From: Candidatus Omnitrophota bacterium
Lineage (GTDB): Bacteria > Omnitrophota > Gorgyraeia > B26-G9 > JBDRCZ01
NCBI GenBank assembly: GCA_043821285.1
Contig: JBDRCZ010000109.1
Coordinates: 4,302 to 68,301 of the forward strand
Direction: 5' to 3'
Length of the DNA stretch: 64,000 nucleotides
The notes under the pieces are model-generated. The model worked only from the letters and a program-made list of their open reading frames with translations. It was not told the origin of the DNA and did no database searches. Positions 8,361 through 53,823 of the stretch are shown in pieces. How positions within the stretch are numbered: position 1 is the first letter of the stretch; each line of letters begins with the position of its first letter. Both the position numbers and the translations under genes were made by a program.

Positions 8361-8475
8361 CGAAATGCAACCACAGATTAAATCACCACAGATTTATAGA
8401 GATGAATTAAAAGAATAAAATCATTTTAATCTGAGTAATCTGTGGTTGCTTAAAAAAATACGAAAGTTTTGACAG
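8361..8475 (+). repeat. MITE-like dispersed repeat, copy 1
   Basis: gcaaccacagatt … aatctgtggttgc is a 13-bp perfect inverted repeat. Tail cttaaaaaaatacgaaagttttgacag is shared with other copies. Confidence 0.7.
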
Positions 8476-8503
8476 TATCATTAATGTCGAAGGAAATACT
8501 TTA

Positions 8504-10204
8504 ATGTGTATGCTTGTATTAGAAAATATCAGTAAAAGATTTGTCAAAGCAACGGATAAAGATTGTAAACCAGCGTATTTCTGGGCATTGAAGAATATGA
8601 GTTTTAGTATTGCACAAGGTGAAATTTTTGGTATCATCGGCAGAAATGGTGCAGGCAAGACAACCCTTTTAAACATTATTGCCGGGATTACTTCTCCGAC
8701 AGAAGGACAGATTAAACTGCAGGGTAAGGTTTCGAGTCTATTTAACTTAGGCACGGGTTTTCAGCATGAGTTAAGTGGCGCAGAGAATATTTATTTAAAC
8801 GGTGCAATTTTAGGCATGCGCCAGACTGAAATCCAGAATAAATACCGCAATATTGTTGAATTTTCCGAGCTGGATGAATTTATTAATATGCCTTTAGGAA
8901 ATTATTCGCAGGGCATGCAGCTCAGGCTTGGGTTTAGCATTGCCATACATTTAGATTTTGATTTATTAATTATCGATGAAGTGCTTACGGTTGGTGACGG
9001 GGCATTTCAGGATAAATGTTTTACAAAACTTACAGAATTTAGACAACAGGGTAAGACAATGATTATTACCACCCAGTCTTTAGGCCTCATTGAGAGGCTA
9101 TCAACCAAGGTGCTATTACTGGAGCAGGGTAGGAATTATGGATATGGCAGTCCGGAAAAGGTAATTGCCGCCTATAAAAAATTATTAAATGAGCACAGAA
9201 AATTATCTGTTTTTCAAAATAATGACATTGTAAAAAAAACAATGTGGTGGTCATTGGATAAAGAAGAGTGGGGGAGAAGATCCGGCACTAAAGAAGTAAT
9301 TATCAAAAAAGTAAAAATGCTAAATCGATGGGGAAAGGGTGTTCAAGAGATAAAACCCAATGATTTTTTAAAAATAAAGGTATGCTTTTCAGTTAAGCAG
9401 ATGATAAAAGAGCCGCATTTTGGCATTGCCGTATTCCGGGAAGATGGGGTTTATTGTTATGGTCCTAATACCATGTTTGATAGTCTTATGTTTGAGAGAT
9501 TAACTATGGGAGAAGGATGGTTTAGTCTTGAGTATAAACGATTTATTCTAATGCCGGGCAAGTATTATTTTTCTGTAATTATCTGGGACAAAAAAGAGGT
9601 ATTAGCCTATGATTGTTTTAAAGGATATTTTAAATTAGAAGTAATTGGGGAAAATAGGGATAATCAACTGCTGAGTCTTAAATCCAGGTTTCATGATCAG
9701 AAGTTTTGGTGGATAAAAAATAACCATTTAAGTAACGGTTTTTTAAATCACGCCGTGCTGAGTGATAAATGGCAAAAAGAATATAATTCTCAACAGGCCG
9801 AAATAAAAAGCGTCCGATTTTTAGATCGTCAGAATAATTTTAAAACAGAATTTTGTACCGAAGAAAAGATGCAGATAAAGATAGATTTTTTTATTCCCGA
9901 CATGGTTAAAAATAATACCCTGTGCTTATGGATAGGAATCTTCCGTGATGACGGTATTTTTTGCCATTCGCGCTATAAAAAGGTAAAACCAACAGATAAA
10001 TCATTCACTTTAATCTATCCGAAATTATTATTGTTACCCGGGGAATACCGGGTTTCTATTGTGATATATGATAAAAATAAAGATGATTTTTTAATTATCA
10101 ATCACGGCAGATATCCTTTTAGAGTATACTTTACACGCCCGGACCATGGCACAGTTTATTTAACACACCAATGGCGCTATAAATTGCCAGATAGTGTCAC
10201 ATAG
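8504..10204 (+). CDS. wzt: ABC transporter ATP-binding protein Wzt-like with tandem C-terminal carbohydrate-binding-like domains
   Basis: Walker A GRNGAGKTT. Signature YSQGMQLRLGF. Walker B LLIIDEV. C-terminal about 320 aa form two repeated beta-rich modules (…LMPGKYYFSVIIWDK… / …LLPGEYRVSIVIYDK…). Confidence 0.8.
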   Translation: MCMLVLENISKRFVKATDKDCKPAYFWALKNMSFSIAQGEIFGIIGRNGAGKTTLLNIIAGITSPTEGQIKLQGKVSSLFNLGTGFQHELSGAENIYLNGAILGMRQTEIQNKYRNIVEFSELDEFINMPLGNYSQGMQLRLGFSIAIHLDFDLLIIDEVLTVGDGAFQDKCFTKLTEFRQQGKTMIITTQSLGLIERLSTKVLLLEQGRNYGYGSPEKVIAAYKKLLNEHRKLSVFQNNDIVKKTMWWSLDKEEWGRRSGTKEVIIKKVKMLNRWGKGVQEIKPNDFLKIKVCFSVKQMIKEPHFGIAVFREDGVYCYGPNTMFDSLMFERLTMGEGWFSLEYKRFILMPGKYYFSVIIWDKKEVLAYDCFKGYFKLEVIGENRDNQLLSLKSRFHDQKFWWIKNNHLSNGFLNHAVLSDKWQKEYNSQQAEIKSVRFLDRQNNFKTEFCTEEKMQIKIDFFIPDMVKNNTLCLWIGIFRDDGIFCHSRYKKVKPTDKSFTLIYPKLLLLPGEYRVSIVIYDKNKDDFLIINHGRYPFRVYFTRPDHGTVYLTHQWRYKLPDSVT

Positions 10205-10335
10205 AAAATGAAAAACAGGAAAAGAATAAACCACAGAGGACATAGAGAACGAAGAATAAGATTATTCTCTAACTCTATTACACTCAAGTTACTCTGTGAC
10301 CTCTGTGGTTGAGTATTTGATAGAACCTAATTAGC
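10205..10335 (+). repeat. ccacagag-type inverted-repeat element
   Basis: aaaccacagagg … ctctgtgacctctgtggtt. Related units occur at 27160-27290 and 59780-59940. Confidence 0.5.
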
Positions 10336-11988
10336 ATGCGGAGAGAGGGAATGAAGCTTCCTATTGTTAGTATAATCGTAGTCAATTTCAACGGCAAAAA
10401 GTATCTAAGAGACTGCTTTACATCCTTAGCTAATCTAAATTATCCCAAAGATAAAATAGAGATAATTATGGTGGATAATGGTTCTACAGACGGTTCGTTA
10501 GAGTATACGGAGAAACATTTTTCAGAAGTAAAGATTATTAAAAATGACATTAACAATTACTGCCGGGCGAATAATTTAGGGATAAAACAAGCTAAAGGGG
10601 AATTTATTCTTTTACAAAATAATGATGTTGTAGCAGAAAAGGATGTGTTGAGAGAATTAATGTTAGTCATTAGCCAAGATAATAAGATCGGTGCAGTTAC
10701 CGGTAAGATCTTATTCCCTGACGGAAAGATACAGTGTGTGGGGCATTATATGATGCCAAATTATTACTGGGCAGACCGTGGATTTAGAGAGGATGACCAT
10801 GGGCAGTATAACGAGGCAGAGGAAATCGATAGTCTTTCGCATTGTTTTGCTTTATATAGAAAAGAGTGTTTGAACAATGTAGGCGAGTTGGATGAGTCTT
10901 TTAATATGTATCTGGAAGACATTGATTTGTCGATACGGCAAAAACAAGAGCAATGGAAAATATTTTATGTTCCAAAAGCAGTTGTTTATCATAAATTTCA
11001 TGGTTCAGTAGATGAAAAAACAGTTGACTTTTACTGTGAAAGAAACAGACTGCTGTTAGTGGCTAAACATTACCCAGAAAAATTACCCCAGACATTATTG
11101 GGACAAGGATATTTTACAGTTTTAAGAGATGCTCGAAAAAGATTTATTGAGATTTTACCGGAAATATTTAATAAGATAAGTATTCACCATGGTCCGGCAA
11201 TGGTTATTCGTTTACTTCCGGATATTTTTAAAAATATGCAGGAGATAATGAATTATGAAAAAGATTATTTGGTAAAGCATATAGATGTATTAAAAAGCTA
11301 TATTAGCAGCAAAGAAGCAGAAATTATCCGTTTAAACGAAAGGATTGAGCAGGAGGTTCGTTTCATTGCCAAAAGGGATAAGATTATTAAAGACAGAGAG
11401 GAAGAAATTATCCGTTTAAACGAAAGGATTGAACAGGAAATAAGTTATGTTATCGAAAGGGATAAAATTATTGAAAATAAGGAACATATAATTGCAGATT
11501 TAAATGAGCGGATTAAATATGGTCATAGTGTTATTTTAGAAAGAGATGATACGATAAAGGGAAAGGAAGAGAAAATTATCTGCTTAGAAGAAGAGATTAA
11601 ACGGAAATTAAATATTATTACTGAGAGAAATAAGGTTATCAGTGAGAAACATAGAGAGATTATGCGGTTAAATTCAGAAATTCAAGAGATGCTTAATTCA
11701 GAAACATTTCGTTTTTTAATCTGTCCTGCCTGGAAGATGTTAGATAGAATCAAATTATTATTCAAAAAATGCAAGCAATGCATAGGTTCTTTTATATTTT
11801 TTATAAAAAAGATTATAAAAAATATCAGGCATGTTTTTACAAATTTAGCAGAAAAAGCTTCACAATCGATTAAATATATAATAAAAGCAATATTAGGTAA
11901 TATTATCTTTGTTTTTATAATTATATTATTTTTTATATTTATTGCGGTTCCGTTAAGGTTGAAAAAAATATTTAGGGTAAATGTATGA
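10336..11988 (+). CDS. GT2 glycosyltransferase fused to a long C-terminal coiled-coil and a hydrophobic tail
   Basis: GT-A N-terminus (IVSIIVVNFNG…DNGSTDGS…, DxD-like EDID). Residues about 310-460 are heptad-rich repeats (EIIRLNERIEQE appears twice). Ends …NSETFRFLICPAW… plus a TM/amphipathic tail. Confidence 0.75.
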   Translation: MRREGMKLPIVSIIVVNFNGKKYLRDCFTSLANLNYPKDKIEIIMVDNGSTDGSLEYTEKHFSEVKIIKNDINNYCRANNLGIKQAKGEFILLQNNDVVAEKDVLRELMLVISQDNKIGAVTGKILFPDGKIQCVGHYMMPNYYWADRGFREDDHGQYNEAEEIDSLSHCFALYRKECLNNVGELDESFNMYLEDIDLSIRQKQEQWKIFYVPKAVVYHKFHGSVDEKTVDFYCERNRLLLVAKHYPEKLPQTLLGQGYFTVLRDARKRFIEILPEIFNKISIHHGPAMVIRLLPDIFKNMQEIMNYEKDYLVKHIDVLKSYISSKEAEIIRLNERIEQEVRFIAKRDKIIKDREEEIIRLNERIEQEISYVIERDKIIENKEHIIADLNERIKYGHSVILERDDTIKGKEEKIICLEEEIKRKLNIITERNKVISEKHREIMRLNSEIQEMLNSETFRFLICPAWKMLDRIKLLFKKCKQCIGSFIFFIKKIIKNIRHVFTNLAEKASQSIKYIIKAILGNIIFVFIIILFFIFIAVPLRLKKIFRVNV

Positions 11989-13166: not shown

Positions 13167-14118
13167 ACCAAAGATTATGGTTTTTTTTACTACTTTTCGA
13201 TGTAACTTACGCTGCGCAATGTGCTATGCATGGATTAAACAGAAAAAAACTAAGGAACTTACAGTTGAGCAAATTCAAGAGCTATTTTGCGATAAACTTA
13301 TTAGGGATAATTTAGAGATTATAAACATTACTGGTGGAGAGCCGACATTAAGAGATGATCTTAGTGAGATTGCTAAAATAATTTTGAGCAATTGTAAACG
13401 GCTCAGACGTATTGACATATCTACCAATGGCGTTAATACCTCAGAGATAATTGATCAACTCGAACGCATCTTGGCGTTGGCTTTGCCAACAAATGTTAGG
13501 CTAACAGCAAATATTTCAATAGATGGTGTAGGAGAAACACATGAGCGGGTGAGAGGCGTTTCAGGTATATTTACTAAAGTCGAACAAACCGTAGAAGGGC
13601 TGAGAGAATTAATGCGATTATATCCATTTTTTTCTCTCGGTTTTAATATGACCATAAGCAGAATAAATTATCATGTAATAGAAGAGGTAAGAAAATATGC
13701 AAAACAAAAAGGCATTGGTGTTAACTTTACCTTGGCAGCAATTTCAGATATTGGGGTAGAGAGTTCTCGAGTAAAAGAGAAATTCATGATAGATCAAGAC
13801 AAAAACAATGCACTCATAGCATCTTTAAACGAATTATTAAAAACAAAAAATGGGGACTTACGTTATTTGAAATTGATTCTTACATGGCTTAAGACCGGAA
13901 GACGTAATGATTATTGTGCGTTTAGGCAAGGCAAGGCTTTTCTTTTAGAGCCTGATGGCGAAATGTATGCATGTGGTAATTTTAGGGAGTCCAGAATTGG
14001 TAATGTTACTCAGTCGCCATTGGAGAAAATATGGATGAGAGCCGGCAAAGCATGGAAAGCTATCTCCATTAAATGCAGCACTTGCGTTAGTAACTGTTAT
14101 ATAGATAAGGCAAAGTGA
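13147..14118 (+). CDS. Radical SAM enzyme with C-terminal SPASM/twitch-like Cys cluster
   Basis: CNLRCAMC (CX3CX2C). GGEPTL. C-terminal CAFRQG…YACGNF…CSTCVSNC. Start may be Met at 13177. Confidence 0.7.
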   Translation: MFPFCPKPKIMVFFTTFRCNLRCAMCYAWIKQKKTKELTVEQIQELFCDKLIRDNLEIINITGGEPTLRDDLSEIAKIILSNCKRLRRIDISTNGVNTSEIIDQLERILALALPTNVRLTANISIDGVGETHERVRGVSGIFTKVEQTVEGLRELMRLYPFFSLGFNMTISRINYHVIEEVRKYAKQKGIGVNFTLAAISDIGVESSRVKEKFMIDQDKNNALIASLNELLKTKNGDLRYLKLILTWLKTGRRNDYCAFRQGKAFLLEPDGEMYACGNFRESRIGNVTQSPLEKIWMRAGKAWKAISIKCSTCVSNCYIDKAK

Positions 14119-14119
14119 T

Positions 14120-14347
14120 GGTAGTGTCAAAAATAAAATAAAAAACCGGAAAGCAACCACAGAACCACGGATGACACAAAAGAAAAGTAAATCTTAACCA
14201 CAGTGTACACAGATAAGCATAAGAATTTTAAAGAGAAAAAATCTGAGATAATCAGTGGTGAATAAATCTGTGGTTGCTTATGACCTATGGTTACTTGTAG
14301 TCTTGAATGCTTGTACTCTGTGAGTGCTTAAAAAATATACGAAAGTG
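14120..14347 (+). repeat. MITE-like dispersed repeat, copy 2
   Basis: ggtagtgtcaaaaataaaat…aaccggaaagcaaccacag … aatctgtggttgc … gcttaaaaaatatacgaaagtg. Left end is identical to the copy at 53351. Confidence 0.7.
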
Positions 14348-14363
14348 ATTTAGGAGGCAATTT

Positions 14364-15767: not shown

Positions 15768-15795
15768 GTTAGAAGTTTTCGGCTAATAGTTTAAC

Positions 15796-17418: not shown

Positions 17419-17500
17419 ACGTGAGAATGCTTTTACTTTCTCGTTTTTTGTAAATGTACATACCGATTAAGCAAATTTGAGTATAAAAAAGGAGACGATT

Positions 17501-18724
17501 TTGAATATATGCCTTATTTCCCGTGAATATCCGGGCGAGACCGGCTGGGGGGGGATAGGTACTTATACTTATCATCTGGCGCATGGATTATCAAAACTGG
17601 GACATAAGGTCGTGGTTATTACTCAGGGGCTTGAGGCAGATAAAGAATACATGGATAAGAGTGTCTGGATATATAGAACTAAACATAAGATTTTGTTTGA
17701 ACATAAAGAGTCCTTGAAAGATTTTTTTCAGCGTTTGGAATACAGTAAGACTGTATATGCAAAGATAAGCGAACTAATAACAAAATGGCGTTTTGATATT
17801 ATTGAAGGGCCGAACTTGTCCGGAGAAGCTTTTATCTACAGTTTATTTAAAAAAGCCCCTTTAGTAACACGGCTGCATACGCATTTTTCTGAGGTGATTT
17901 CTTTTTTAGGCTGGGAAATAACCCAAGACCTGCGGCTGAGCTGCTGGATAGAAGATGCCACGATTTTAAGAAGCGATCTGGTAACTTGTTCAACGCGGCA
18001 ACATGCTGGGATTATCTTTAGCAACTTGGTATCCTGTCCGGAAAATGTAGAAATAATCCCCCTGGGTGTTCCCTTACCAACATTAGACCGGCAAAATAAA
18101 GTTAATCAGGGTAAATGGAAAGTCTTATATGTGGGCAGGCTTGAAAAAAGAAAGGGTATACAAGTATTAATTAAAGCAATACCTGAAATATTACAGCAGG
18201 TTCCTGACACGGAATTTAATATTATTGGCCGGGATTCTTATGTTAATGGGGAGAGTGTTTCTTTTACTGGTCGCGCAGAGGATTCGTTTCAGCGTAAACT
18301 ATTGAAAGACATCCCGCGGCAATATTTAAAAAAAATTAAATTTATAGGATATGCAGAGGATAAGCAATTAGAAGAGTACTACCAGAGTTGTGACGTATTT
18401 GTAGCGCCGTCTTTGTATGAGTCATTCGGATTTATTTATATTGAGGCAATGTCCTATGCTAAGCCGGTTGTCGGATGCAGTGTTGGCGGGGTGCCGGAGG
18501 TTATAAAAGATGGAGAAACAGGAATATTGGTTGCGCCCGAGGACCATTATCAACTGACACAGGCAATTATCCGGTTATTAAAAAATAAAGAGTTAAGAGT
18601 GAGAATGGGAATTAATGCCAGAAAACATGTGGAAGCAAATTTTACCCGCGAACAGATGGTACAGAAAACCCTGGATACGTATAGAAAAGTTATTAACGTA
18701 AAGAATAATAAAAGAACCAGATGA
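17501..18724 (+). CDS. Glycosyltransferase family 4, tandem paralog A
   Basis: N-term NICLISREYPGETGWGGIGTY. RBS aaaaggag sits upstream of TTG 17501 (the ORF track begins at 17477). About 60% identical to the CDS at 19154. Confidence 0.8.
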   Translation: MNICLISREYPGETGWGGIGTYTYHLAHGLSKLGHKVVVITQGLEADKEYMDKSVWIYRTKHKILFEHKESLKDFFQRLEYSKTVYAKISELITKWRFDIIEGPNLSGEAFIYSLFKKAPLVTRLHTHFSEVISFLGWEITQDLRLSCWIEDATILRSDLVTCSTRQHAGIIFSNLVSCPENVEIIPLGVPLPTLDRQNKVNQGKWKVLYVGRLEKRKGIQVLIKAIPEILQQVPDTEFNIIGRDSYVNGESVSFTGRAEDSFQRKLLKDIPRQYLKKIKFIGYAEDKQLEEYYQSCDVFVAPSLYESFGFIYIEAMSYAKPVVGCSVGGVPEVIKDGETGILVAPEDHYQLTQAIIRLLKNKELRVRMGINARKHVEANFTREQMVQKTLDTYRKVINVKNNKRTR

Positions 18725-19140: not shown

Positions 19141-19153
19141 TTAATTAAAACTT

Positions 19154-20392
19154 ATGCATGTAGATAAACCTTTGAATATATGCCTTATATCCCGCGAATA
19201 TCCAGATGAAACCGGCTGGGGGGGGATTGGAAAGTACACATATCGCCTCGCACACGGCTTGACTGATTTAGGACATAATGTCCATATTTTAGCGGAAAGC
19301 TTAGATAAAGATAAAGCGTATATAGAAAACAGAATTTCTATACAGCGAATTTTAAATAAGAATTTTTTTCATAATAAAGATTCTCTGACGGAGTTTGTAA
19401 ACAGATTAAATTATAGCTGGTGTATCTTTAAAAAAATAGAGGAGTTAATTGATAAATATCATATTGATATTATTGAAGGGCCTAATTTTTACGGAGAAGC
19501 ATATGCATATAGCTTATGTAAGAAAACTTCTCTGGTTACTCGGCTACACACCACCTTTTCTGAAATTATTGCAGCTTATGAGTGGAGAAGAACAACGGAT
19601 TGCCGTTTAAGCTGCTGGATAGAGGATGCGACAATCTTAAAAAGTGACTTGGTGACCTGTTCAACAAAAAGACATGCGGATATTGTTTTAAAAAGTTTAC
19701 CGGCAAAACCGAAAAATATAAAGATAATTCCTTTAGGCGTGCCTTTACCAATATTAAATGGACGGGATAATGCTAAAAATGAAAAGTTAAGTGTATTATT
19801 TGTCGGCCGGCTTGAAAAGAGAAAAGGGATTCAGACATTAGTCAAAGCAATCCCAGAGGTGTTAAAAGAGATTCCCAATATAGAGTTTAATATTGTTGGC
19901 CGGGATACTTTTTTAACTTCTGAGGGAATTTTTTTTACCGGCAAAGAGAGTGACTCATTTAAGAATAAATTAATTAACGATATCCCCCGAGAATATCTAA
20001 CCAATGTAAATTTTTTAGGTTTTCTAGAAGATAAGAAGTTGGAAGAATATTATCGGAGTTGTGATTTATTTGTCGCTCCGTCTTTATACGAGTCATTTGG
20101 GTTTATTTATATTGAGGCAATGTCATATGCCAAGCCGGTTATCGGATGCAGTGTTGGCGGGGTGCCGGAGGTTGTCAAGAATAGTGAGACCGGTATACTT
20201 GTTGCTCCGGAAAATCCCAATCAACTGGCTCAGGCGATTATCAGGTTATTAAAAAACAAAGACCTAAGAGAACAAATGGGCATTAGTGCCAGAAAACATG
20301 TTGAAGAAAATTTCACTTTGGAACAGATGGTAAGTAAAACAATAGCTGCTTATCATAATGTTTGTCGTCCTTCGAACAGAATTCAAATGTGA
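19154..20392 (+). CDS. Glycosyltransferase family 4, tandem paralog B
   Basis: MHVDKPLNICLISREYPDETGWGGIGKY. Shares a 90-nt near-identical tract (20091-20180) with paralog A (18421-18510). Confidence 0.8.
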   Translation: MHVDKPLNICLISREYPDETGWGGIGKYTYRLAHGLTDLGHNVHILAESLDKDKAYIENRISIQRILNKNFFHNKDSLTEFVNRLNYSWCIFKKIEELIDKYHIDIIEGPNFYGEAYAYSLCKKTSLVTRLHTTFSEIIAAYEWRRTTDCRLSCWIEDATILKSDLVTCSTKRHADIVLKSLPAKPKNIKIIPLGVPLPILNGRDNAKNEKLSVLFVGRLEKRKGIQTLVKAIPEVLKEIPNIEFNIVGRDTFLTSEGIFFTGKESDSFKNKLINDIPREYLTNVNFLGFLEDKKLEEYYRSCDLFVAPSLYESFGFIYIEAMSYAKPVIGCSVGGVPEVVKNSETGILVAPENPNQLAQAIIRLLKNKDLREQMGISARKHVEENFTLEQMVSKTIAAYHNVCRPSNRIQM

Positions 20393-26866: not shown

Positions 26867-27289
26867 GGTGAGCGACGGCCTTTGGCCGTTCATTGCCATA
26901 AATACTTATTTTCCCACCAAGACGCAAAGAGCGCCAAGTTGTTAAGCTGCGGGGGGTAAGATTGTTTCTTATGATATTATGTATTTCTTTGCGTGCTTTG
27001 CGACTTTGCGGGATTATTATTTTATTGTTTTTTGTTAGCATATTCAAACTTAGCCAGTCGGGATAACTGACTGGTAAAAACTATAAAATAAAGTGACATC
27101 TATATGTTATGATTGTAGTTACAACATCGTAAATGTTTTTTAAGATGTTCCACCGTAGGTGGAACTGAGGAACACAGAGTGGATATAAATTCAATGTAAA
27201 ACTATTGAAAGATGGGATAGAAAGGTTTGTGTTGTAAGATTTCTCTGTGAAGCTCAGTGCTCTCTGTGGTTTTAAAAAACAGTTAGACC

Positions 27290-29269: not shown

Positions 29270-29319
29270 AACTTTTTACCACGAAGCGCACGAAGGCCAC
29301 GAAGAAAAAAGAAGGTATT

Positions 29320-29693
29320 GTGAAATTTGATGAGTTGTCAAATAGGATAATTGGTTTAACGATTGAGGTTCATAAGGGACTGGGGCCTGGATTGTTGGAA
29401 AACACGTATAAGCAATGCTTAGCTTATGAATTAAGGCAGGCAGGTATTAATTTTCAAATGGAGAGTGAATTGTACCTGTACAATACAAGAAGATACGTAT
29501 CCCTTGTGGATACCGTGTAGATTTTATAGTAGAAGACAATCTAATCATAGAATTAAAAAGCGTTGATGAAATACATCCAATACATGAAGCACAGTTAATA
29601 ACCTATATGAAATTTGCGAAGGTAAAGATTGGGTTATTGATAAATTTTAACGAAAGACTTCTTAAGAAGGGCATAAAAAGATTTGTTCTATAA
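29320..29693 (+). pseudogene. GxxExxY-family (PD-(D/E)XK-like) gene with internal frameshift
   Basis: N-terminal half MKFDELSNRIIGLTIEVHKGLGPGLLENTYKQCLAYEL… in one frame. C-terminal half …PVQYKKIRIPCGYRVDFIVEDNLIIELKSVDEIHPIHEAQLITYMKFAKVKIGLLINFN… is in frame +2, joining near 29464-29472. Confidence 0.6.
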
Positions 29694-29743
29694 AAACTTA
29701 CTTCGTGCCCTTCGTGGTTCAAAATTTAGAAAAAATCTAAAAT

Positions 29744-31390: not shown

Positions 31391-31498
31391 TATTATATTG
31401 ATAATAAAAAAACGTGAAAAGAATAAACCAGATCACTCAGATAGTTAGTCTGATAAAAAAAACCACGGATTAACACGGATTGGACAGGGGAGAGCAAA

Positions 31499-32647: not shown

Positions 32648-32648
32648 A

Positions 32649-33728: not shown

Positions 33729-33793
33729 ACATAATATTTAATTTGTCATAATCAATATCTTTTAAATTCATGCATTATTGAGGATCATCTGTA

Positions 33794-33946
33794 GGTAGTG
33801 TCAAAGATTCTATGAAAGAATTGAAAGCAACCACAGATTATGCAGATAGTTATAAATATTTGCAGGGGGGAAGAAATTCGAGAAAATCTGTGGTTGCCTG
33901 TGCCCTATGGGTACTTAAAAATATACGAAAGTTTTTGACAAAACCC
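33794..33946 (+). repeat. MITE-like dispersed repeat, copy 3 (full length, TIR tgtcaaa…tttgaca)
   Basis: ggtagtgtcaaag…gcaaccacagatt…aatctgtggttgcctgtgccctatgggtacttaaaaatatacgaaagtttttgacaaaaccc. Confidence 0.7.
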
Positions 33947-33968
33947 ATCTGTATATAAGGAGAATAAA

Positions 33969-35644: not shown

Positions 35645-35817
35645 AGTAAACGAATTATAACTATGTATTGAGTATTGTGTATTGAGCATAAAAACTAAAA
35701 AAAAGGTTTTTGTTTTTTGTATCTGCTAAGGTAAATGACTAGAAAATGCAACGCATTTTCCGATTATGAAGTTATCCCGCAGCAGGCTATCGGGGGAGCT
35801 TCATTGAGGGGAGATAA

Positions 35818-36963
35818 ATGAACGGGGAAATATTATCTATTCTGTATAATATTGAGCGGGAAAAAGGTATTGACCGGGAAGTATTACTGCAGGCAGTGGA
35901 ATCCGCAGTTTTATCTGCCGTGAGAAAAAAATATGGTCCGTATGAAGAGATCCGGGTTGAGCTTGATCGTAAGACTGGTAAGATAAATGTAGTTTCCCCT
36001 AATGGAGAGCCGGTTGATTCCGCTGATTTTGGACGGATTGCTGCGCAGACGGCAAAACAGGTAATTATTCAAAAAATTCGTGAAGCCGAGCGTGATGTGA
36101 TCTATAATGAGTTCTTAGCACGTGTCGGCGATATCACTAATGGTTCGGTACACCGGGTTGAACGTACCGGTATTATCGTGGATTTGGGCAGAACCGAGGC
36201 AATATTGCCGTACCGGGAGCTTATCCCTAAAGAAAGATATAAACAGGGTGACCGCGTGCGTGCTTATATTATGGAAGTAAAACGAGCACCGAAAGGGCCG
36301 CAAATTATTCTCTCCCGTACGCACTCCGGTTTTATCCGGCGTTTATTTGAGCTTGAGGTTCCGGAAATACACCAGGGAATTGTGGAACTGAAAGCTGTTT
36401 CCCGTGAGGCCGGTGACCGTACTAAGGTTGCAGTTTGGTCGAATGACCAGCGCGTTGATTGTGTTGGTGCATGTGTGGGAATGCGCGGTTCGCGGATTAA
36501 AAATATTGTGCGTGAGCTTAAATCGGAAAAAATCGATATTGTCAGGTGGAGTAATAGTATAAAAGAATATGTCACTAATGCTTTAAGTCCAGCAAAAATT
36601 TTGGATATTAAAATAAATGAGGCAGGAAAAAAAACGGATGTTGATGTTAGTGATGATCAGTTATCACTGGCAATTGGTAAGAAAGGACAAAATGTAAGAT
36701 TAGCCGCGAAACTTACCGGCTGGAGTATAGATATTCATAGTGAAAGAAAAACTAATGTCTTGGAAAAATTGACGATAAAAAAAGAAAAGGACTCAATATC
36801 GAAAATTCCCGGAGTAGGACTAAAGACACTAAAGGCACTGCAGGAAGCCGGGATTACGGACTTGAATGCAATTGTTAATTTAACGGAAAAAGATTTACTG
36901 AAAATTAAAGGTGTTGGTAAAAAGACGGCGAAGAATATTATTTTAGCGGTGCAAAAGGGTTAA
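35818..36963 (+). CDS. nusA: Transcription termination/antitermination factor NusA
   Basis: N-terminal domain plus S1 plus two KH domains, with a C-terminal HhH segment. Upstream of infB. Confidence 0.9.
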   Translation: MNGEILSILYNIEREKGIDREVLLQAVESAVLSAVRKKYGPYEEIRVELDRKTGKINVVSPNGEPVDSADFGRIAAQTAKQVIIQKIREAERDVIYNEFLARVGDITNGSVHRVERTGIIVDLGRTEAILPYRELIPKERYKQGDRVRAYIMEVKRAPKGPQIILSRTHSGFIRRLFELEVPEIHQGIVELKAVSREAGDRTKVAVWSNDQRVDCVGACVGMRGSRIKNIVRELKSEKIDIVRWSNSIKEYVTNALSPAKILDIKINEAGKKTDVDVSDDQLSLAIGKKGQNVRLAAKLTGWSIDIHSERKTNVLEKLTIKKEKDSISKIPGVGLKTLKALQEAGITDLNAIVNLTEKDLLKIKGVGKKTAKNIILAVQKG

Positions 36964-37239
36964 TGCTAAAAGCTTCGTAAAAGAACAAAATACAACCATA
37001 TTTCACATAGACAGTTAAACTGATATAAAAGAAGATAGAGCCACAGATTGACACTGATTGATCACGGATGAAAAAAAGATGAGACTAAATATATCTAGAC
37101 CACGGATAACACGAATTGACACGAATGGAAAAATATTCATTGTTCAGAGATGAGACTTATAAAATAATCGGAGTATATTTTGAAGATTATTTGGCAGTTA
37201 GCCCAAACTTTCAGATGAAAGACTTGTTATTAAGCTATT

Positions 37240-37335
37240 CGTGATAATTTGTGCAATTAGTGGTAAAAAAAGAGTCTAAGAGATTTGAATATTAGAGTTG
37301 GCACAACATCCGTGTAAATCCGTGGCTAAAAAAGG
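37240..37335 (+). repeat. caattagtgg…atccgtgtaaatccgtggctaaaaaa element immediately upstream of infB
   Basis: Shares both blocks with 54470-54560 (upstream of nusB) and, inverted, with 4245-4510. Confidence 0.55.
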
Positions 37336-42906: not shown

Positions 42907-44005
42907 TCTTGCCAACAGACATATACTGGATTTAAAAACGTATCAGCCTGGAAAACCGATTGAGGAGGTTAAAAGACAGTTAAAATTAAAACGGGTAATT
43001 AAACTTGCCTCAAACGAAAACTCCTTTGGTGTCTCAAAAAAGGCGATACGGGCGGTAAAAAAAGCACTTCCGCGGGTAAATTTTTATCCAGATAGTAATT
43101 GTTTTTATTTGCGAGAAAAGCTGGCAAAGAAATTAAATCTTAGAGGAGAAAATTTAATTTTTGGCAATGGCTCAGACGAGATTATCTTAATGGCCCTGCG
43201 TGCATTTGTTGCGCCAGGCGAAGAAGTAATTGTTGCCCGTCCGACATTTTTGATTTATGAGCAGGCATCGAAAGTGGCCGGGGCAAAGGTCATTACGGTC
43301 CCAATGCGGGGTTTCCGTTATGATTTAAAAAAGATGAAGGAAAAAATAACTTCCAAAACGAAGATGATTTTTATTGCCAATCCCGATAATCCTACCGGGA
43401 GCTACGTAACAAAAACAGAAGTTAATAATTTTTTTAAGGGACTGCCACGGCATGTACTGGTTTATTTTGATGAGGCCTATTATGAGTTTGCCGCGAATAT
43501 AGATTACCCCCAGACACAAAGACTTATTAAGACTATTTCCAATATTATTATTACCCGGAGTTTTTCAAAGGCATATGGGTTAAGCGGACTGCGTATTGGA
43601 TATGGCATTGCGCCGGAGTTAATAATCAGTACATTGAATAAGGTACGTGAACCTTTTAATGTGAATAGTCTGGCCCAGGTTGCCGCCCAGGCCGCCTTAG
43701 ATGATCAAGATTTTATCCGAAAAACATTAAAACTTACAAAAATAGGACGGCGATTTTTATGTGCCGCCTTTAAAGAATTAGGACTGTTTTATGTACCCAG
43801 TGCGGCAAATTTTGTCCTGGTTAATGTGGGCAGAGACAGTACAAAAATTTATAATGCTTTATTAAATAAAGGAATTATTGTGCGTGATATGAAACCGTGG
43901 GGGCTTGAGCGATTTATTCGTGTGACGATTGGTCAAGAAAAACAGAATAAGTATTTTGTAAGAGTATTAAGAGAGGTTTTAGGCGTAACGTCAAAAGTTT
44001 CATAA
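42890..44005 (+). CDS. hisC: Histidinol-phosphate / aromatic aminotransferase (class II PLP fold)
   Basis: …LASNENSFG…, …SFSKAYGLSGLRIGY… (PLP lysine motif). Start ATG 42890 overlaps the pheA end. Confidence 0.8.
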   Translation: MKMMINLANRHILDLKTYQPGKPIEEVKRQLKLKRVIKLASNENSFGVSKKAIRAVKKALPRVNFYPDSNCFYLREKLAKKLNLRGENLIFGNGSDEIILMALRAFVAPGEEVIVARPTFLIYEQASKVAGAKVITVPMRGFRYDLKKMKEKITSKTKMIFIANPDNPTGSYVTKTEVNNFFKGLPRHVLVYFDEAYYEFAANIDYPQTQRLIKTISNIIITRSFSKAYGLSGLRIGYGIAPELIISTLNKVREPFNVNSLAQVAAQAALDDQDFIRKTLKLTKIGRRFLCAAFKELGLFYVPSAANFVLVNVGRDSTKIYNALLNKGIIVRDMKPWGLERFIRVTIGQEKQNKYFVRVLREVLGVTSKVS

Positions 44006-44009
44006 AAAG

Positions 44010-44125
44010 ATAAAATGCAACCACAGATTTAAATAGGTGATTTAAAAGAATAAAATTGTTTTAATCTGTATAATCTGTGGGTGCTTGTACTCTGTGAGTG
44101 CTTAAAAAATATACGAAAGCTTTAG
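44010..44125 (+). repeat. MITE-like dispersed repeat, copy 4
   Basis: aaaatgcaaccacagattt…aatctgtgggtgcttgtactctgtgagtgcttaaaaaatatacgaaagc. Confidence 0.7.
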
Positions 44126-44157
44126 CCATAACCCTGTTGGGGAAGGAGTGATAACTA

Positions 44158-45171: not shown

Positions 45172-45172
45172 T

Positions 45173-46703: not shown

Positions 46704-46754
46704 ACCTCTATTTTTTAACCACAGAACCACAAATGACACAGATTTAAAGAAATA

Positions 46755-46795
46755 AGCCAAATATCCGCCACAAAGATTGGCGGATTAAATTCCGA
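46755..46795 (+). repeat. REP-like element
   Basis: atatccgccacaaagattggcggattaaattccg. Confidence 0.5.
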
Positions 46796-46912
46796 CAGAT
46801 AAGTTTACAGCACCTTCGGGTTTGTAACTTATCTGTCGTCATTTAAGGAATAAATTTTTGCCGCGGATTAACACTGATAGAACACGGATAAAAAAAGAAT
46901 ATATCCAATCAC

Positions 46913-47551: not shown

Positions 47552-48413
47552 ACATATTGGGTTTTGTTTTGGGGTAAAGCGGGCAGTAAATATTGCTGTT
47601 CATACCCTTGCTGGTAAAAAAAATACGGTCTATGCATCTGGACCGATTATCCATAATCCACAGACGGTCCAGTCCCTGCGCGCTAAAGGCCTAAAGATTG
47701 TAAAAGATATTAACCGCATTAAACGCGGGACTTTGATTGTTTGTTCACATGGCATGGGGCCGCGTATTTTACAAAGGGCAAAAAAAAGGCAGTTGGATAT
47801 TATTGATGCAACCTGTCCGTTTGTCAAAAAAGTACAGGATATTGCCCGGGATTTAAAACGTAACGGATATCATGTAATATTGGTTGGTGATAAAAATCAT
47901 CCAGAGATTAAAGCGATTAAGGAAATCGTTGGCCGGGATATTACCATTATTGAAGATGTGCATAGTGTGATAAAAATGAAATCGAGAAGTAAAAAAATTG
48001 GCATAATTGCCCAGACAACACAGCGCCGGGATAATTATTATCGCATTATCGAGCATATTTTAAAAACTATATTTTGGGGGATAAATGAGGGTTTTAATAA
48101 AATAACCTTGTCTGAAGTAAGAATATTTGATACAATATGTAATGCGACATTATTGCGGCAGCAAGCGGCAAAGGCATTGACAAAGGAAGTTGATTTAATT
48201 TTTGTCATTGGTGGAAAGATGAGCGCAAATACCACCCGTCTGGCGCAGATTTGTTGTATGAGCGGTGTTCGAACATATCATATCGAAAGAGCTGAAGAGA
48301 TAAAAGAAAGCTGGCTTAAGGGGGTAAAGAAAATCGGTATCGCCAGCGGAACATCTACGCCGAAGCAGATAATAAATGCCGTGGTAGAGAAATTGAAAAA
48401 TAATAATTTTTAA
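47532..48413 (+). CDS. ispH: 4-hydroxy-3-methylbut-2-enyl diphosphate reductase
   Basis: MQIKLAKHIGFCFGVKRAV. Conserved Cys ligands. cmk-ispH-rpsA neighbourhood. The ORF track start at 47505 is probably too early. Confidence 0.85.
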   Translation: MQIKLAKHIGFCFGVKRAVNIAVHTLAGKKNTVYASGPIIHNPQTVQSLRAKGLKIVKDINRIKRGTLIVCSHGMGPRILQRAKKRQLDIIDATCPFVKKVQDIARDLKRNGYHVILVGDKNHPEIKAIKEIVGRDITIIEDVHSVIKMKSRSKKIGIIAQTTQRRDNYYRIIEHILKTIFWGINEGFNKITLSEVRIFDTICNATLLRQQAAKALTKEVDLIFVIGGKMSANTTRLAQICCMSGVRTYHIERAEEIKESWLKGVKKIGIASGTSTPKQIINAVVEKLKNNNF

Positions 48414-48452
48414 GTAGTAAAAATAAAAAACTGATAAGGGGGTTGTTATGTT

Positions 48453-50066: not shown

Positions 50067-50141
50067 AAAGTGGCTACGGGTATTAAGCCGTGTGGCACTA
50101 CCGCGGTAAAAATGCGGCAAGGTAAAGCAATAGGTATAATA

Positions 50142-51524
50142 ATGCCAAAAAGATATTTACTGATCATTACATTGTTTATTTGTTTAGGGTATTTCAGTAG
50201 TAGTTGTTATGCTGATGATTTTAATATTAGTGTTGTACCTGTGTTGCGCACTAACACAATCAATTTTGGCACGATAAACCCGGATGATCTACCTCAGGAT
50301 CAAGAAGTAAATATTACCGTTACCAATACAACCGGTGCGCGTTATCAGATAATACAGACTGCGGCGGATCTACTCAGGAGCAACACCGGCCGAGTAATTG
50401 ATCGTGATAATTTTGTCGTTTTTACCAATGAAGGCAGAAATGGAACACTGGAAGCAACAATGCCTACACCGGTTACAGATAGTATGATTTTATATACTTC
50501 TGATCATCGCGGTAGTAGTGACACAATACTTGCAGTTTATTCACTGCCATTTCAAACATTACCTATTGCCGGTATTTATTTCACCACACTGACTTATACC
50601 CTTGAGCCGATAAATGCTATTGGGATATCAGCAAAATCCGTGACTATTAGCGTAATTATGGAAATTACTCCGCATGCCGAAATAGAAGTACAGGTACTTG
50701 ATGGATCAACCCGTTTGAATTTTTCCCAGATTGGTGCGGATACACAGTATCAGTCTTCACAAGAGGTACGGCTTGAGATTACAAATAATTTAGACCGTCC
50801 GTATCAAGTTACGCAGTATATCTTATCCAATTTTCAGAATAGCATGGGGGATAGCATAACAAATGATAATTTTTTATTTACCTCCTTATCCTGCGGAAAA
50901 GGAACTATAATGCACACTACGCCAGATGCTTTATCGAATACTCCGGTGGTAATATATCAATCTTCCAATGAGGGTGGCAGTGATTACATTATTTTATTAT
51001 ACACGCTGGCATTACCGCAGTCACAACCTGCCGGGCTATATAGTGCAACGCTTAAATTTTTGCTTCAGACGGATGATTTGGTCCCGAGTTCCGATACAAC
51101 CGCACTGCTGCAGGCAGAGGTTGAAATCCCCACAATATTTAACCTTGAGATAATATCAACTGGCCTTGATTTTGGCAGGTTTTCTGCTGATACCCGTGAA
51201 CAAATTCGCTCTGCTGAGATCAGGGCAGTTACCAATCTTGGAAAACAATACCATGTTAGTCAGACAGTTACACGGAAATTAATGAATGTTGAGGGTCAGA
51301 AACTCCCGGAAGAGAGTTTTTCCATGTGGACAGTAGGCGGTGAGCTTGGTACGACAAAAGTGCCGATACCACAGACTGTTCCGGAAGGTGAGTTTGTTTT
51401 ATATATTTCTTCGCCAGAAGGTGAAGAAGATACATTTCAGGTAAATTATAAATTAAAACTTCCCATAGATGTTGCGGGAGGAGATTATACATCAGAGATT
51501 ATTTATACGATGTCATCCTTGTAA
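50142..51524 (+). CDS. Secreted protein of unknown function with three ~130-aa internal repeats
   Basis: Signal peptide MPKRYLLIITLFICLGYFSSSCYA. Three repeats each centred on (V/I)TN…(R/K)(P/Q)Y(Q/H)V(T/S)Q. Alternative GTG start at 50070. Confidence 0.6.
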   Translation: MPKRYLLIITLFICLGYFSSSCYADDFNISVVPVLRTNTINFGTINPDDLPQDQEVNITVTNTTGARYQIIQTAADLLRSNTGRVIDRDNFVVFTNEGRNGTLEATMPTPVTDSMILYTSDHRGSSDTILAVYSLPFQTLPIAGIYFTTLTYTLEPINAIGISAKSVTISVIMEITPHAEIEVQVLDGSTRLNFSQIGADTQYQSSQEVRLEITNNLDRPYQVTQYILSNFQNSMGDSITNDNFLFTSLSCGKGTIMHTTPDALSNTPVVIYQSSNEGGSDYIILLYTLALPQSQPAGLYSATLKFLLQTDDLVPSSDTTALLQAEVEIPTIFNLEIISTGLDFGRFSADTREQIRSAEIRAVTNLGKQYHVSQTVTRKLMNVEGQKLPEESFSMWTVGGELGTTKVPIPQTVPEGEFVLYISSPEGEEDTFQVNYKLKLPIDVAGGDYTSEIIYTMSSL

Positions 51525-51849
51525 AAACCGTATTTAAGTATTATGGTGGTTTGTCCGCCAGGGAATTAATGTCACAAAAATTTTGTAATATACAAAATAT
51601 ATTTATACGGTTTTTACATCACGAAATTGGTGAAGCCAATTTCGTTTTCATCTACTGAGATAGCTTGTCGGAAAACGCAACGCATTTCCCGGGTATGAAG
51701 ATATCCATATAGTAATTTGCGGGGTAGATCAATCTTATTGTTATATTGCTTAAAACTATATAAGAATTTAAAAGACAAAATTTCTTTTGGTTTTACCTTT
51801 TCTTTTTAAAAGAAAAGGTAAATGCTAAATTAATGCCGTAGGCAGTAAT

Positions 51850-51996
51850 TTACATATTTTCAGGATTGGGTGACTTCATAAGTTTCAGAAGAATTCCCGA
51901 CTGGCAGTAATAACCTGCGAGTTTGCCTAAAAGAAGTAAAGGCTGACAGAGCTGGTGTAATTCCAGCGTCAATAGTAAAGTCTAGAAGGGAGAAGA
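51850..51996 (+). ncRNA. FMN riboswitch (RFN element) aptamer
   Basis: …caggattgggtga…aattcccgactggcagtaataacctgcgag…ggctgacagagctggtgtaattccagcgtcaatagtaaagtctagaagggagaag matches the RFN consensus blocks GGGTGA…AATTCCCGACCGGCGGTA…GCGAG…GTCAGCAGATCTGGT…AATTCCAG…GCCGACAGTAAAGTCTGGATGGGAGAAG. Lies upstream of ribBA. Confidence 0.8.
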
Positions 51997-52010
51997 TATG
52001 CGGCGTATTA

Positions 52011-52041
52011 TACCCGAAGCGTATCTTCGGGTATTTTTTTT
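52011..52041 (+). terminator. Intrinsic terminator (FMN riboswitch expression platform)
   Basis: tacccgaag cgtat cttcgggta followed by T8. Confidence 0.75.
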
Positions 52042-52118
52042 AAAAAATCGTGCCAGAATCCCGCTTTTCTTTTCCAAAGAAAAGAAAGTGGATAAATTAG
52101 TGCTGAAAGCAATAATTT

Positions 52119-53327
52119 ATGGTTAAGCACAAGTTTAATACAATTCCAGAAATAATTCATGATCTCAAATCCGGCAAGATGGTGATTATTATTGATGACA
52201 AGCGCCGGGAAAATGAAGGAGATTTATTAATCGCGGCAACTTTTGTCCGCGATCAGGATATTAATTTTATGGCTAAATTTGGCCGTGGTCTTATCTGTGT
52301 TCCCATGGAGGCAGCGCGGTTGAACGCATTAGACATACATCCCATGGTAAAAAAGAGTGAAGCTTCATTGGGCACGGCGTTTACAGTATCGGTTGATTTA
52401 AAGAAAGGGATAACAACCGGAATATCCGCACCGGATCGAGCAAAGACAATACATGCACTGGCAAAGATAAACACAAAAGCAACTGATATTGTTCGTCCGG
52501 GGCATATTTTCCCTTTACAGGCCGTAGAAGGCGGGGTATTAGTCAGAGCCGGGCACACTGAGGCAAGTGTTGATTTGATTAAATTGGCTAAGATTAGTCC
52601 GCCGGTCGGGGTGATTTGTGAGATTATTAGTGATGACGGAAACATGGCCAGGACCAAAGAGTTGGTTGAGTTTGCCAGAGAACATAAATTAAAAATTAGT
52701 ACAATTGCTGATTTAATCTATTATCGCCGTCAGACAGAAAAGTTGGTAACGCGGATTACTACTTCACATTTACCGACTTGTTACGGAACGTTTAAAATAA
52801 TGATCTATTCAAGTGCCGTTGATAATCATCACCACGTTGCCCTGGTCTATGGTAAAATTAAACAGCCAACTTTAGTACGGGTACATTCTGAATGTTTAAC
52901 TGGTGATGTGTTTAACTCGCGGCGTTGTGATTGCGGACAGCAACTTGATCAGGCAATGCAACGTATTGCGCGTGAAAAAAACGGAGTGATACTCTACATG
53001 CGCCAGGAAGGACGGGGTGTCGGGCTGGTAAATAAAATCCGGGCATATTCCCTGCAAGATCGCGGCTATGATACCGTAGAAGCAAACCGTCATCTCGGAT
53101 TAAAAGCCGATCTGCGTGATTATGGCATTGGTGCACAAATTCTGGTTGATTTAGGAGTAAAAAAAATAAAGCTTTTAACTAATAATCCACAAAAAATTAT
53201 TGGTCTTGAAGGATACGGGCTCAAAGTTGTGGAACGTCTTCCGATAGAAATTAAACCGACAAAAGCAAACAAACGATATTTGCGGACGAAAAAAAAGAAG
53301 TTAGGACATTTATTGGAATTTGTCTAA
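52119..53327 (+). CDS. ribBA: Bifunctional 3,4-dihydroxy-2-butanone-4-phosphate synthase / GTP cyclohydrolase II
   Basis: DHBP synthase N-half (…[11 protein letters not shown]…). GCH-II C-half with the CxxC…C zinc site ([16 protein letters not shown]). Confidence 0.9.
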
Positions 53328-53350
53328 TTTAGATCCCATATGCAAAAATA

Positions 53351-53823
53351 GGTAGTGTCAAAAATAAAATGAAAAACCGGAAAGCAACCACAGATTACGC
53401 AGATAGTTATAAATATTTGCAGGGGGGAGGAAATCCGAGAAAATCTGTGGTGAATGAATCTGTGGTGAATAAAAGCGAGAAAGATTATCCATATAAAGAA
53501 TAAGAGGCAGATTTTATAGTTGAGGGGGATAGTATTAGTAGAACTAAATGCCACTAAAGGAGTTATGAAGATAGATGAGGCACAAGTGCATAATTATCTA
53601 AAGGCGACACAAAACGGATCGGATTACTGTTTAACTTTGGAAGAGCATCTTTAGAATATAAGAGGATAATAAGTAAAATCTTACAGTTATAACCATAGAT
53701 TAAATCACCACAGATTTATAGAGCTGATTTAAAAGAAAAAAAATCATTTTAATCTGAGTAATCTGTGGCTGCTTGTGCCCTATGGGTACTTAGAAAAATG
53801 TGCGAATATTTTTGACAGAACCC
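53351..53823 (+). repeat. MITE-like repeat copies 5 and 6 (composite: left end at 53351, right end at 53822, about 220 bp of unrelated internal sequence)
   Basis: Left: ggtagtgtcaaaaataaaatgaaaaaccggaaagcaaccacagatt…aatctgtggtgaatgaatctgtggtg. Right: aaccatagattaaatcaccacagattta…aatctgtggctgcttgtgccctatgggtacttagaaaaatgtgcgaatatttttgacagaaccc. Confidence 0.65.

Follow-up and report, generated by a model that had tools for sequence, protein, structure and literature searches.

Within a 64,000-nucleotide stretch of a Candidatus Omnitrophota genome (contig JBDRCZ010000109.1, positions 4,302 to 68,301; hereafter the window), a short repeat lies at five loci just upstream of gene starts. This repeat is probably a lineage-specific, non-autonomous insertion element, bounded by terminal inverted repeats (TIRs) and target-site duplications (TSDs), whose interior is a degenerate hairpin cassette for a GxxExxY nuclease gene with inverted arrays of the 9-nt unit CACAGATT. 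It combines the shell of a miniature inverted-repeat transposable element (MITE) with a hairpin cassette of the type known from the intervening sequences (IVSs) of 23S rRNA. The copies range from 109 to 472 bp in size, and their sole coding trace is a decayed half of a GxxExxY gene.

A complete copy comprises, in order, a left module, a long hairpin, one to three small hairpins, an A-rich right module and a right end. The recurrent parts and the five copies, A to E, are as follows.

Left module: GGTAGTGTCAAAAATAAAATGAAAAACCGGAAA
Right module, A-rich: CTTAAAAAATATACGAAAG
Right end: TTTTTGACAGAACC
Small hairpin variants: GTGCCC-TAT-GGGTAC, GTACTC-TGT-GAGTGC and TGACC-TAT-GGTTA
8367..8475, + strand: copy A, a hairpin with loop 2 and the right module, between wzm and wzt; arm pair 8367/8437, arm-to-arm gap 57 nt
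14120..14345, + strand: copy B, left module, variant long hairpin (14153-14277), three small hairpins and right module; arm pair 14153/14265, gap 99 nt
33794..33945, + strand: copy C, 152 bp, left module, arm a, loop 1, arm a', small hairpin, right module and right TIR; arm pair 33827/33885, gap 45 nt
43984..44133, + strand: copy D, older and diverged, a hairpin (44017-44084) with loop 2, small hairpin GTACTCTGTGAGTGC and right module; arm pair 44017/44072, gap 42 nt
53351..53822, + strand: copy E, 472 bp, the most complete, with nested arms, a gene remnant and both TIRs; arm pair 53384/53760, gap 363 nt

Matches to the arm sequence GCAACCACAGATT at up to two mismatches number 11 over both strands of the window, where 1.16 are expected and none of 100 shuffles reaches 11; the octamer CCACAGAT occurs 16 times against 0.89 expected. 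The GCAACCACAGATT/AATCTGTGGTTGC hairpin itself is found at the five loci, always on the + strand. An earlier reading of the DNA, made without database searches (the sequence-only reading), had recognised this family but counted at least six copies; two of these, 53351-53470 and 53691-53823, are the two ends of the single copy E. The 13-bp perfect inverted core that it described stands as a pair of arms, perfect on both sides only in A and C, the left arm of B having two mismatches and the right arms of D and E one each, and its arm spacing of 50-70 bp proves to be approximate only. The conserved flanks that it reported are repeated well above expectation: copies of the left flank GGTAGTGTCAAAAATAAAAT are present at 14120 and 53351 (none expected), with an altered form at 33794 that keeps 80% identity over the 44-nt left-flank repeat, and the right flank CTTAAAAAATATACGAAAG occurs three times (0.09 expected).

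Inverted ends had also been proposed, and take the form of imperfect 14-bp TIRs. The left TIR, GGTAGTGTCAAAAA, and GGTTCTGTCAAAAA, which is the right end TTTTTGACAGAACC reverse-complemented, agree in 12 of their 14 positions, and the shell-end pattern can be written GGT(A/T)(G/C)TGTCAAAAA. The left TIR is exact at 14120 and 53351 and has one mismatch at 33794, and the right TIR, read on the reverse strand, is GGTTCTGTCAAAAA at 53809 and GGTTTTGTCAAAAA at 33932. Both ends are thus present in copies C and E and the left end in B; they are diverged in D and in a related element at 10190-10327. Target-site duplications, which the sequence-only reading had left to be looked for, are found as 8-bp direct repeats flush with the ends in each of the three copies whose left end is preserved.

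Copy C: left CATCTGTA at 33786-33793, right CATCTGTA at 33946-33953, 8/8 identical
Copy E: left CAAAAATA at 53343-53350, right CAAAAATT at 53823-53830, 7/8 identical
Copy B: left AAAGTGAT at 14112-14119, right AAAGTGAT at 14342-14349, 8/8 identical

The chance of an 8/8 match at a given site is about 3e-5 in AT-rich DNA, as estimated from base composition. The empty sites reconstructed from these repeats are plausible. The left duplication of copy B includes the TGA stop codon of the upstream radical SAM (rSAM) gene; excision of the copy in silico gives a plausible, tightly coupled junction, GCAAAGTGATTTAGGAGGCAATTTGTG, and the empty site is reconstructed as GCAAAGTGATTTAGGAGG. The combination of TIRs with flush 8-bp repeats indicates insertion with staggered cleavage of the target.

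The internal organisation of the element is best seen in copy E, whose parts follow each other as listed here.

53351-53364: left TIR GGTAGTGTCAAAAA, followed by the A-rich left module
53384-53396: arm a, followed by loop 1
53441-53466: arm c', followed by the GxxExxY remnant
53480..53680, + strand: C-terminal half of a GxxExxY / PDDEXK_3 gene, decayed by stops and frameshifts
53692-53717: arm c, followed by loop 2
53760-53772: arm a', followed by the small hairpin and the A-rich right module
53809-53822: right TIR TTTTTGACAGAACC

The predicted RNA fold of this copy nests TIR with TIR, a with a', and c' with c around the gene remnant (-125.3 kcal/mol, z=-7.2). The remnant matches TIGR04256 (E=3.1e-13, profile positions 61-116) and PF13366 (E=2.1e-11). 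The sequence-only reading took this region for one element split by about 220 bp of foreign sequence; the element is indeed one, but the insert is its own decayed GxxExxY gene.

The other copies can be read against copy E. In pairwise alignment copy C corresponds to E 53351-53450 (89%) joined to E 53760-53822 (89%), with the junction inside a AATCTGTGG unit that is present at both E sites; it lies 23 nt upstream of pyk (fold z=-5.4). Copy A corresponds to E 53692-53822 minus the small hairpin, at 92% identity, and has no left module (fold z=-5.5), and copy D corresponds to E 53705-53822 at 79% identity (fold z=-2.8), its right end degenerate (CTTTAGCCATAACC) and its left-end-like sequence overlapping the last codons of the upstream gene. 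The left module of copy B is identical to that of E at 43 of 46 positions, and its right module is cut at CGAAAG. We conclude that the short copies are internal-deletion products of an E-like form, arising between repeated 9-nt units. The same units are present in both orientations at both ends of the cassette, so that recombination or slippage between direct units deletes the gene. Loop 1 is retained in C and loop 2 in A and D; deletion between direct units can happen in two ways (c' with a', or a with c), and each accounts for one loop type. The series from E to C, A and D illustrates the decay of gene-bearing cassettes to bare hairpins. Identity among the copies is 79%-100% over the modules, and none of the GxxExxY genes of the window is intact. 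This suggests a family that spread in the recent past and is now in decay.

Related cassettes with other arm units are present in the same window, where arrays of at least two CAC(R)(R)A(K)-type units number 29, against 3.5 in shuffles, and at least four other hairpin unit types occur (CACGGAT, CACAGAG, CACGAAG and CGCAAAG). Those that share parts of the shell or of the gene are the following.

10190..10327, + strand: related element, a CACAGAG/CTCTGTG hairpin in the same shell; left module at 83% identity to that of E, right end TTTGATAGAACC
27173..27270, + strand: CACAGAG-armed hairpin with a C-terminal GxxExxY remnant (…KDGIERFVL*)
29279..29718, + strand: gene-carrying cassette, arms ACCACGAAG x3 and CTTCGTG x2 around GxxExxY gene 29320-29693
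54444..54607, + strand: CACGGAT/ATCCGTG hairpin between ribH and nusB, right TIR TATTTGACAGAACC at 54594-54607
59782..59930, + strand: CACAGAG-armed hairpin with an N-terminal GxxExxY remnant (…IEVHKAVGLGLLESVYEQ)

The gene at 29320-29693 is full length and apparently frameshifted (TIGR04256 E=1.4e-42, PF13366 E=5.7e-41). Further array hairpins or half-arms, with units CACGGAT, CGCAAAG and CAC(T/G)AAT, lie at 4256-4776, 26911-27015, 31463-31489, 37041-37326, 46719-46890 and 60037-60056; the arrays at 31463, 60037 and 20430 are single arms only. Two segments, 4469-4568 and 37174-37273, are 76% complementary and look like what is left of one further small gene, oppositely oriented in the two.

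Relatives with the same ribBA-ribH-nusB-PHP-ribD-ribE gene order, whose ribBA is 68-70% identical to the ribBA of the window, protein MFH1778073.1 at NCBI, are without the element at the same gene junctions. Their ribBA-ribH spacer is 140 bp of different conserved sequence with no hairpin, compared with 519 bp including the element in the window, and their ribH-nusB spacer is 5 bp, compared with 234 bp including the hairpin. No heptad arrays are found in 9-11 kb of these syntenic relatives. The contig of the closest ribBA relative (76%; L145, Logan SRR22388244) ends in a (GTAGAGA)x3 array (2005-2041), 35 nt after the ribBA stop codon, which suggests that another repeat-type hairpin occupies this junction there and that it broke the assembly.

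The question of whether the element might instead be a regulatory leader arises from its placement. All five copies are alike in orientation, and the distance from copy end to start codon is 18-28 nt in each, which confirms a position just before gene starts and narrows the 20-60 bp given by the sequence-only reading. A leader shared by one regulon, carrying a transcription-factor or riboswitch-type site, would have these properties. It is nevertheless extremely improbable, as the downstream genes have nothing in common: their domains, from A to E, are Wzt_C+ABC_tran, B12-binding+Radical_SAM, PK, DAHP_synth_1 and DMRL_synthase, in agreement with the wzt, B12-rSAM, pyk, DAHP synthase and ribH named before, and they belong to an O-antigen ABC transporter (the gene 5' of copy A being a wzm-type ABC-2 permease), an rSAM protein, pyruvate kinase, DAHP synthase and lumazine synthase. 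The copies also have TIRs and TSDs, one encloses a decayed nuclease gene, and the region of copy E has no Rfam match at E up to 1. The shared cis-regulatory cassette that had been offered as an alternative is thus not borne out, the downstream genes being unrelated and copies having target duplications. Over the whole window Rfam at gathering threshold finds only one tRNA and a flavin mononucleotide (FMN) riboswitch (RF00050, 84.9 bits) at 51852-52001, and in nine related loci only sub-threshold microRNA-hairpin noise. The riboswitch lies upstream of ribBA and provides the rib operon, ribBA-ribH included, with a leader of its own, a point against the repeat being its regulator.

Some 150 nt upstream of this riboswitch is one copy of a separate 62-nt direct repeat (51645-51706), the other being upstream of the gene at 35818 (35716-35777); the two are 73% identical and contain GAAAA(T/C)GCAACGCATTT(T/C)CC.

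A second regulatory possibility is that the element is an RNA structure of benefit to the host, an intercistronic processing or stabilising site, terminator or attenuator, retained for that role in the manner of REP or BIME sequences. Its placement would suit this, as the elements are always intergenic, within operons and 0-15 nt from the next Shine-Dalgarno sequence, and the hairpins of other phyla described below are likewise mostly intergenic, often with a stop codon at ~30 nt or less. Conservation of the small hairpin points the same way: across copies, a small sample, 96.7% of cells are paired, two pairs show compensatory double changes, and every copy has one G.U pair that exists on the + strand only, being an A.C mismatch on the opposite strand. 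From these pairs it appears, in so small a sample, that the small hairpin works as RNA on the + strand. Against a host function, consensus scans find no intrinsic terminator (GC-rich stem followed by a T-run) in the elements, and sigma-70 promoter-like sites do not exceed the shuffle mean, with none common to the copies; relatives do without the elements at the same junctions, TSDs and gene remnants are marks of insertion, and the downstream genes share nothing. We regard this possibility as quite unlikely. The same scans, at or below chance inside the elements, remove the outward promoter or terminator activity that the sequence-only reading had joined to its MITE proposal, whereas the proposal of a non-autonomous insertion element itself is upheld by the TIRs, the TSDs and the relatives without the element.

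Two more specific candidates were rejected. An outward promoter using the TTGACA of the right TIR is discounted by unsuitable spacing to -10-like hexamers and to the start codon, and by the empty scans. An integron attC site seems unlikely, as the arms do not match RYYYAAC/GTTRRRY and the neighbouring genes are housekeeping operon genes rather than cassettes.

Hairpins with the same arms are widespread. A scan of one genome per species with the pattern GCAACCACAGATT-N40-70-AATCTGTGG, which selects short-loop hairpins without an open reading frame (ORF), finds 72 loci in Chloroflexota, NC10, Planctomycetota (including Brocadia and Jettenia), Bacteroidota, Gemmatimonadota, Nitrospinota, Acidobacteriota and one gammaproteobacterium. 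The arm sequence is conserved across genomes of 35-70% GC, with at least two tandem units per arm in 59 of the 72, and an A/G variant in either arm usually has its counterpart in the other. The consensus of well-paired arms is three 9-mers, CCACAGATT-AC(R)C(R)GATT-(W)CACAGATT, of which the window copies have two. Most of the loci are intergenic and near stop codons, often within ~30 nt by a rough ORF-based estimate. A tblastn search of the 72 loci gives a single GxxExxY gene (L043), a consequence of the scan having picked short-loop, ORF-less hairpins. Five of the 72 (L009, L010, L016, L033 and L072), all from Saccharothrix, were rejected as family members, as they belong to a different element that shares only the 13-mer. 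The interior of that multi-copy element is a long, unrelated palindrome (TTCCGGGGTGTGCAATAAAAC…) between GC-rich inverted flanks, and the element is probably an actinobacterial MITE.

Where the gene is present, the arms follow the protein. In Planctomycetota MAG219 a GxxExxY gene of intact length, with one in-frame stop, is bracketed by identical GCAACCACAGATT…AATCTGTGGTTGC arms in the same two end-hairpin layout as copy E. Homologues of its protein (60-80% identity) in Planctomycetota, Brocadiaceae and Jettenia are all bracketed by CACAGAT/ATCTGTG arrays, with genes of this clade lying upstream of aspartokinase or between cusB and cusA. Homologues of the window gene at 29320 are 63-78% identical to it and 36-38% identical to the other clade; their locations are the rfbA-rfbC interval of Jettenia, a BREX operon and several groundwater contexts, and every one has CACGAAG/CTTCGTG units and lacks CACAGAT. 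Over 21 distinct flank pairs each clade is found only with its own unit, CACGAAG or CACAGAT, without exception; most pairs are armed on both sides, and at a few loci the array on one side is decayed or missing. Both clades, each with its own arms, coexist in one Jettenia genome, and Brocadia likewise carries both clades. We conclude that the pairing of arms with a cognate protein clade holds across phyla. The heavily decayed remnant in copy E has 21 of 55 identities to each of the two clades. One and the same GxxExxY protein turns up in at least three contexts of a single sample, and contigs shorter than 2 kb carry many of the family members, which indicates that the cassettes behave as repeats. 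The BREX example (L098 1001-1700; JGI Ga0558117_07897) is a CACGAAG-armed cassette between brxC and pglX, followed by two further ORF-less CACGAAG hairpins in tandem.

The function of PDDEXK_3 proteins is listed as unknown (PMC3424549). An AlphaFold2 model of the GxxExxY protein P0141 (pLDDT 95.5) is a minimal PD-(D/E)XK core, for which the nearest solved structures found by Foldseek are Cas4 SSO0001 and lambda exonuclease (E ~2e-3, TM 0.44-0.54); its Foldseek neighbours are generic PD-(D/E)XK proteins only. Marginal profile matches are to PADLOC Cas4 and a PHROGs endonuclease, and a sequence search of the PDB with GxxExxY found no structure. Residues D67, E77, K79 and Q91, the catalytic D…ExK…Q, are invariant in 62 GxxExxY sequences, consistent with an active nuclease. 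In the literature searched for GxxExxY, PF13366, TIGR04256 and PDDEXK_3 we found no description of an association with hairpins, although one may nonetheless have been published.

These observations raise the possibility that the GxxExxY nuclease itself mobilises or maintains the hairpins through its cognate 9-mer arrays, like RAYT proteins and their REPINs, in which case the ORF-less hairpins would be passengers and the TIR shell incidental. The strict co-variation of arm unit with clade in unrelated contexts, even within one Jettenia genome, would be expected of such a system, as would arms that are conserved over so wide a range of GC content and mirror each other's variants; the recurrence of an identical protein, the short contigs, the invariant catalytic residues and the confident core with its likeness to Cas4 and lambda exonuclease also favour it. 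On the other hand, the CACAGAT hairpin in the window has spread with the shell and TSDs and not by itself, cassettes elsewhere have no TSDs, and neither strand transfer nor ligation is an obvious capability of a 120-aa nuclease. In the Coxiella IVS, moreover, the same arm type surrounds an unrelated gene, S23p, so that such arms do not require GxxExxY, and the co-variation might be mere co-inheritance. The system also differs from REP/REPIN-RAYT in kind. It shares with it short palindromic intergenic repeats in many copies and a gene flanked by its own inverted, clade-specific repeat, but the partner here is a PD-(D/E)XK nuclease (PF13366), not an HUH/Y1 (IS200/IS605-like) transposase, and the arms are tandem 9-mers rather than a single REP hairpin. 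As an account of the window element we consider this mobilisation by the nuclease unlikely. A broader proposal, which we hold tentatively and with more doubt than belief, is that GxxExxY genes, an abundant family, are cargo of a widespread and hitherto undescribed class of selfish hairpins with clade-specific CACAGATT, CACGAAG, CACGGAT or CACAGAG arrays, in which a nuclease of ~120 aa would recognise its own arms in RAYT/REPIN-like fashion and which would shed ORF-less hairpins into the intergenic DNA of many phyla; the 23S IVS would then be an rRNA-resident special case with another passenger.

The IVS is a close counterpart of the interior of the insertion element. That of Coxiella burnetii 23S rRNA is a 428-nt selfish element with a 28-bp terminal stem that RNase III cuts mid-stem; its 5' region has AGAAGA and three tandem GACAGAT heptamers, and it encloses a decaying S23p ORF (PMC4990558). 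Here, too, a long terminal stem is built of tandem heptamer-type repeats of almost identical sequence, CACAGAT(T) in two or three units as compared with three of GACAGAT, and one small decaying ORF is enclosed. The leading AGAAGA has a parallel in the AGAAGAA that often precedes the arms in other phyla, and the arms, of 13-28 bp with fold z of -5 to -7, are comparable with the 28-bp stem of Coxiella. The differences are that the present elements lie between protein-coding genes, whereas an IVS lies in helix 45 or 25 of 23S rRNA (the Rfam scan finds no rRNA gene in the window); that the cargo is a GxxExxY PD-(D/E)XK nuclease and not the S23p four-helix bundle; and that the cassette is inside a TIR/TSD shell, with RNase III cleavage suggested only by analogy. 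With MITEs the element shares small size, the lack of a transposase, TIRs, TSDs and several dispersed intergenic copies. Unlike them it has no known parent insertion sequence (IS), its interior is a hairpin-bracketed nuclease minigene rather than a deleted transposase gene, and its size variants come from recombination between internal repeat units.

The ends of the shell, and these alone, can be compared with the IS6/IS26 family (IS26, IS257, IS1216E), in which inverted repeats of 14-15 bp also start with GG and target duplications are also 8 bp. The inverted repeat of IS257 is GGTTCTGTTGCAAAG and that of IS26, which makes 8-bp direct repeats, is GGCACTGTTGCAAA. The first 8 nt of GGTTCTGTCAAAAA are identical in IS257; beyond position 8 the two diverge, with CAAAAA here and TGCAAAG in IS257, and no DDE transposase is seen in the window. 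IS6-family elements move via cointegrates, and simple MITE insertions would be unusual for them. On end sequences, then, the resemblance is a lead and does not amount to membership.

On the reading as a non-autonomous insertion element, copies would have inserted a short way 5' of ribosome-binding sites, within runs of co-directional genes, insertion being catalysed in trans by an enzyme that recognises the 14-bp ends and is encoded elsewhere; this enzyme may be IS6-like, although we think that less likely than not. Gene-bearing cassettes would then lose the GxxExxY gene between direct units, leaving a bare hairpin with loop 1 or loop 2. The read-through transcript of each copy would fold into a long perfect stem and the small conserved hairpin. 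RNase III might perhaps cut the long stem, as in the Coxiella IVS, a step that we find plausible without expecting it; such cutting would allow the element to sit within operons at low cost and make insertion there tolerable. The element would also be neutral for the host.

Several points weigh against this interpretation. The TSDs come from three copies, and in copy B, whose right end is truncated, the duplication overlaps element sequence. The relatives that provide the empty sites are distant (70-76% protein identity), so that their spacers cannot be aligned with those of the window. The copies share one orientation, yet so do all genes of the window: every copy and every ORF of at least 150 aa is on the + strand, and orientation with respect to transcription is therefore inseparable from orientation with respect to replication. 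No transposase is evident in the window, in which no long unassigned ORF lies beside the elements (its ORFs being only partly annotated), and no autonomous partner is seen there. The shell of left and right modules was not found elsewhere in metagenome or viral scans, which gave chance matches only: in metagenomes the combination of arm and right module (AATCTGTGG N4-34 AAAWATACGAAAG) was matched nine times, always in unrelated contexts, and scans of viral contigs returned none for the left end and five, all unrelated, for the right module. All GxxExxY genes in the window are decayed, giving no sign of present mobility, and the proposed RNase III step rests purely on analogy.

A MITE in one uncultivated genome would by itself be routine, and it is the composition of this one that counts. 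It ties together the dispersed hairpin repeats in intergenic DNA of phyla from Chloroflexota to Bacteroidota, the large orphan GxxExxY/PDDEXK_3 family and the long-standing puzzle of the origin of 23S rRNA IVSs. Insertions between tightly coupled genes, as in wzm-wzt and ribBA-ribH-nusB, matter for operon annotation and RNA processing in these lineages, and such elements disrupt metagenome assemblies. The strict pairing of arm unit and clade makes the recognition of cognate as opposed to non-cognate arms directly testable.

Some further features of the window are separate from the element. A second family of short hairpins, (C)CCGCC-ACAAAG/…-GGCGG(G), is unrelated to it and occurs at 4190-4215, 4670-4745, 5020-5085, 46763-46790 and 57725-57775, as well as in the ribBA-ribH spacer of relatives (L082 4945-4965, L084 3125-3145). 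CCGCC…GGCGG hairpins flank a small, intact-looking GIY-YIG nuclease ORF (57799-58050, + strand; PF01541 E=2.5e-15 on an approximate translation), which lies directly upstream of the tRNA at 58059-58133. In a glycan gene cluster two adjacent paralogues, 17500-18634 and 19171-20305, are 77-89% identical in DNA at a spacing of 1671 bp, and the family-2 glycosyltransferase gene at 10336-11988 contains two tandem 84-bp units (11301-11468) that are 77% identical.

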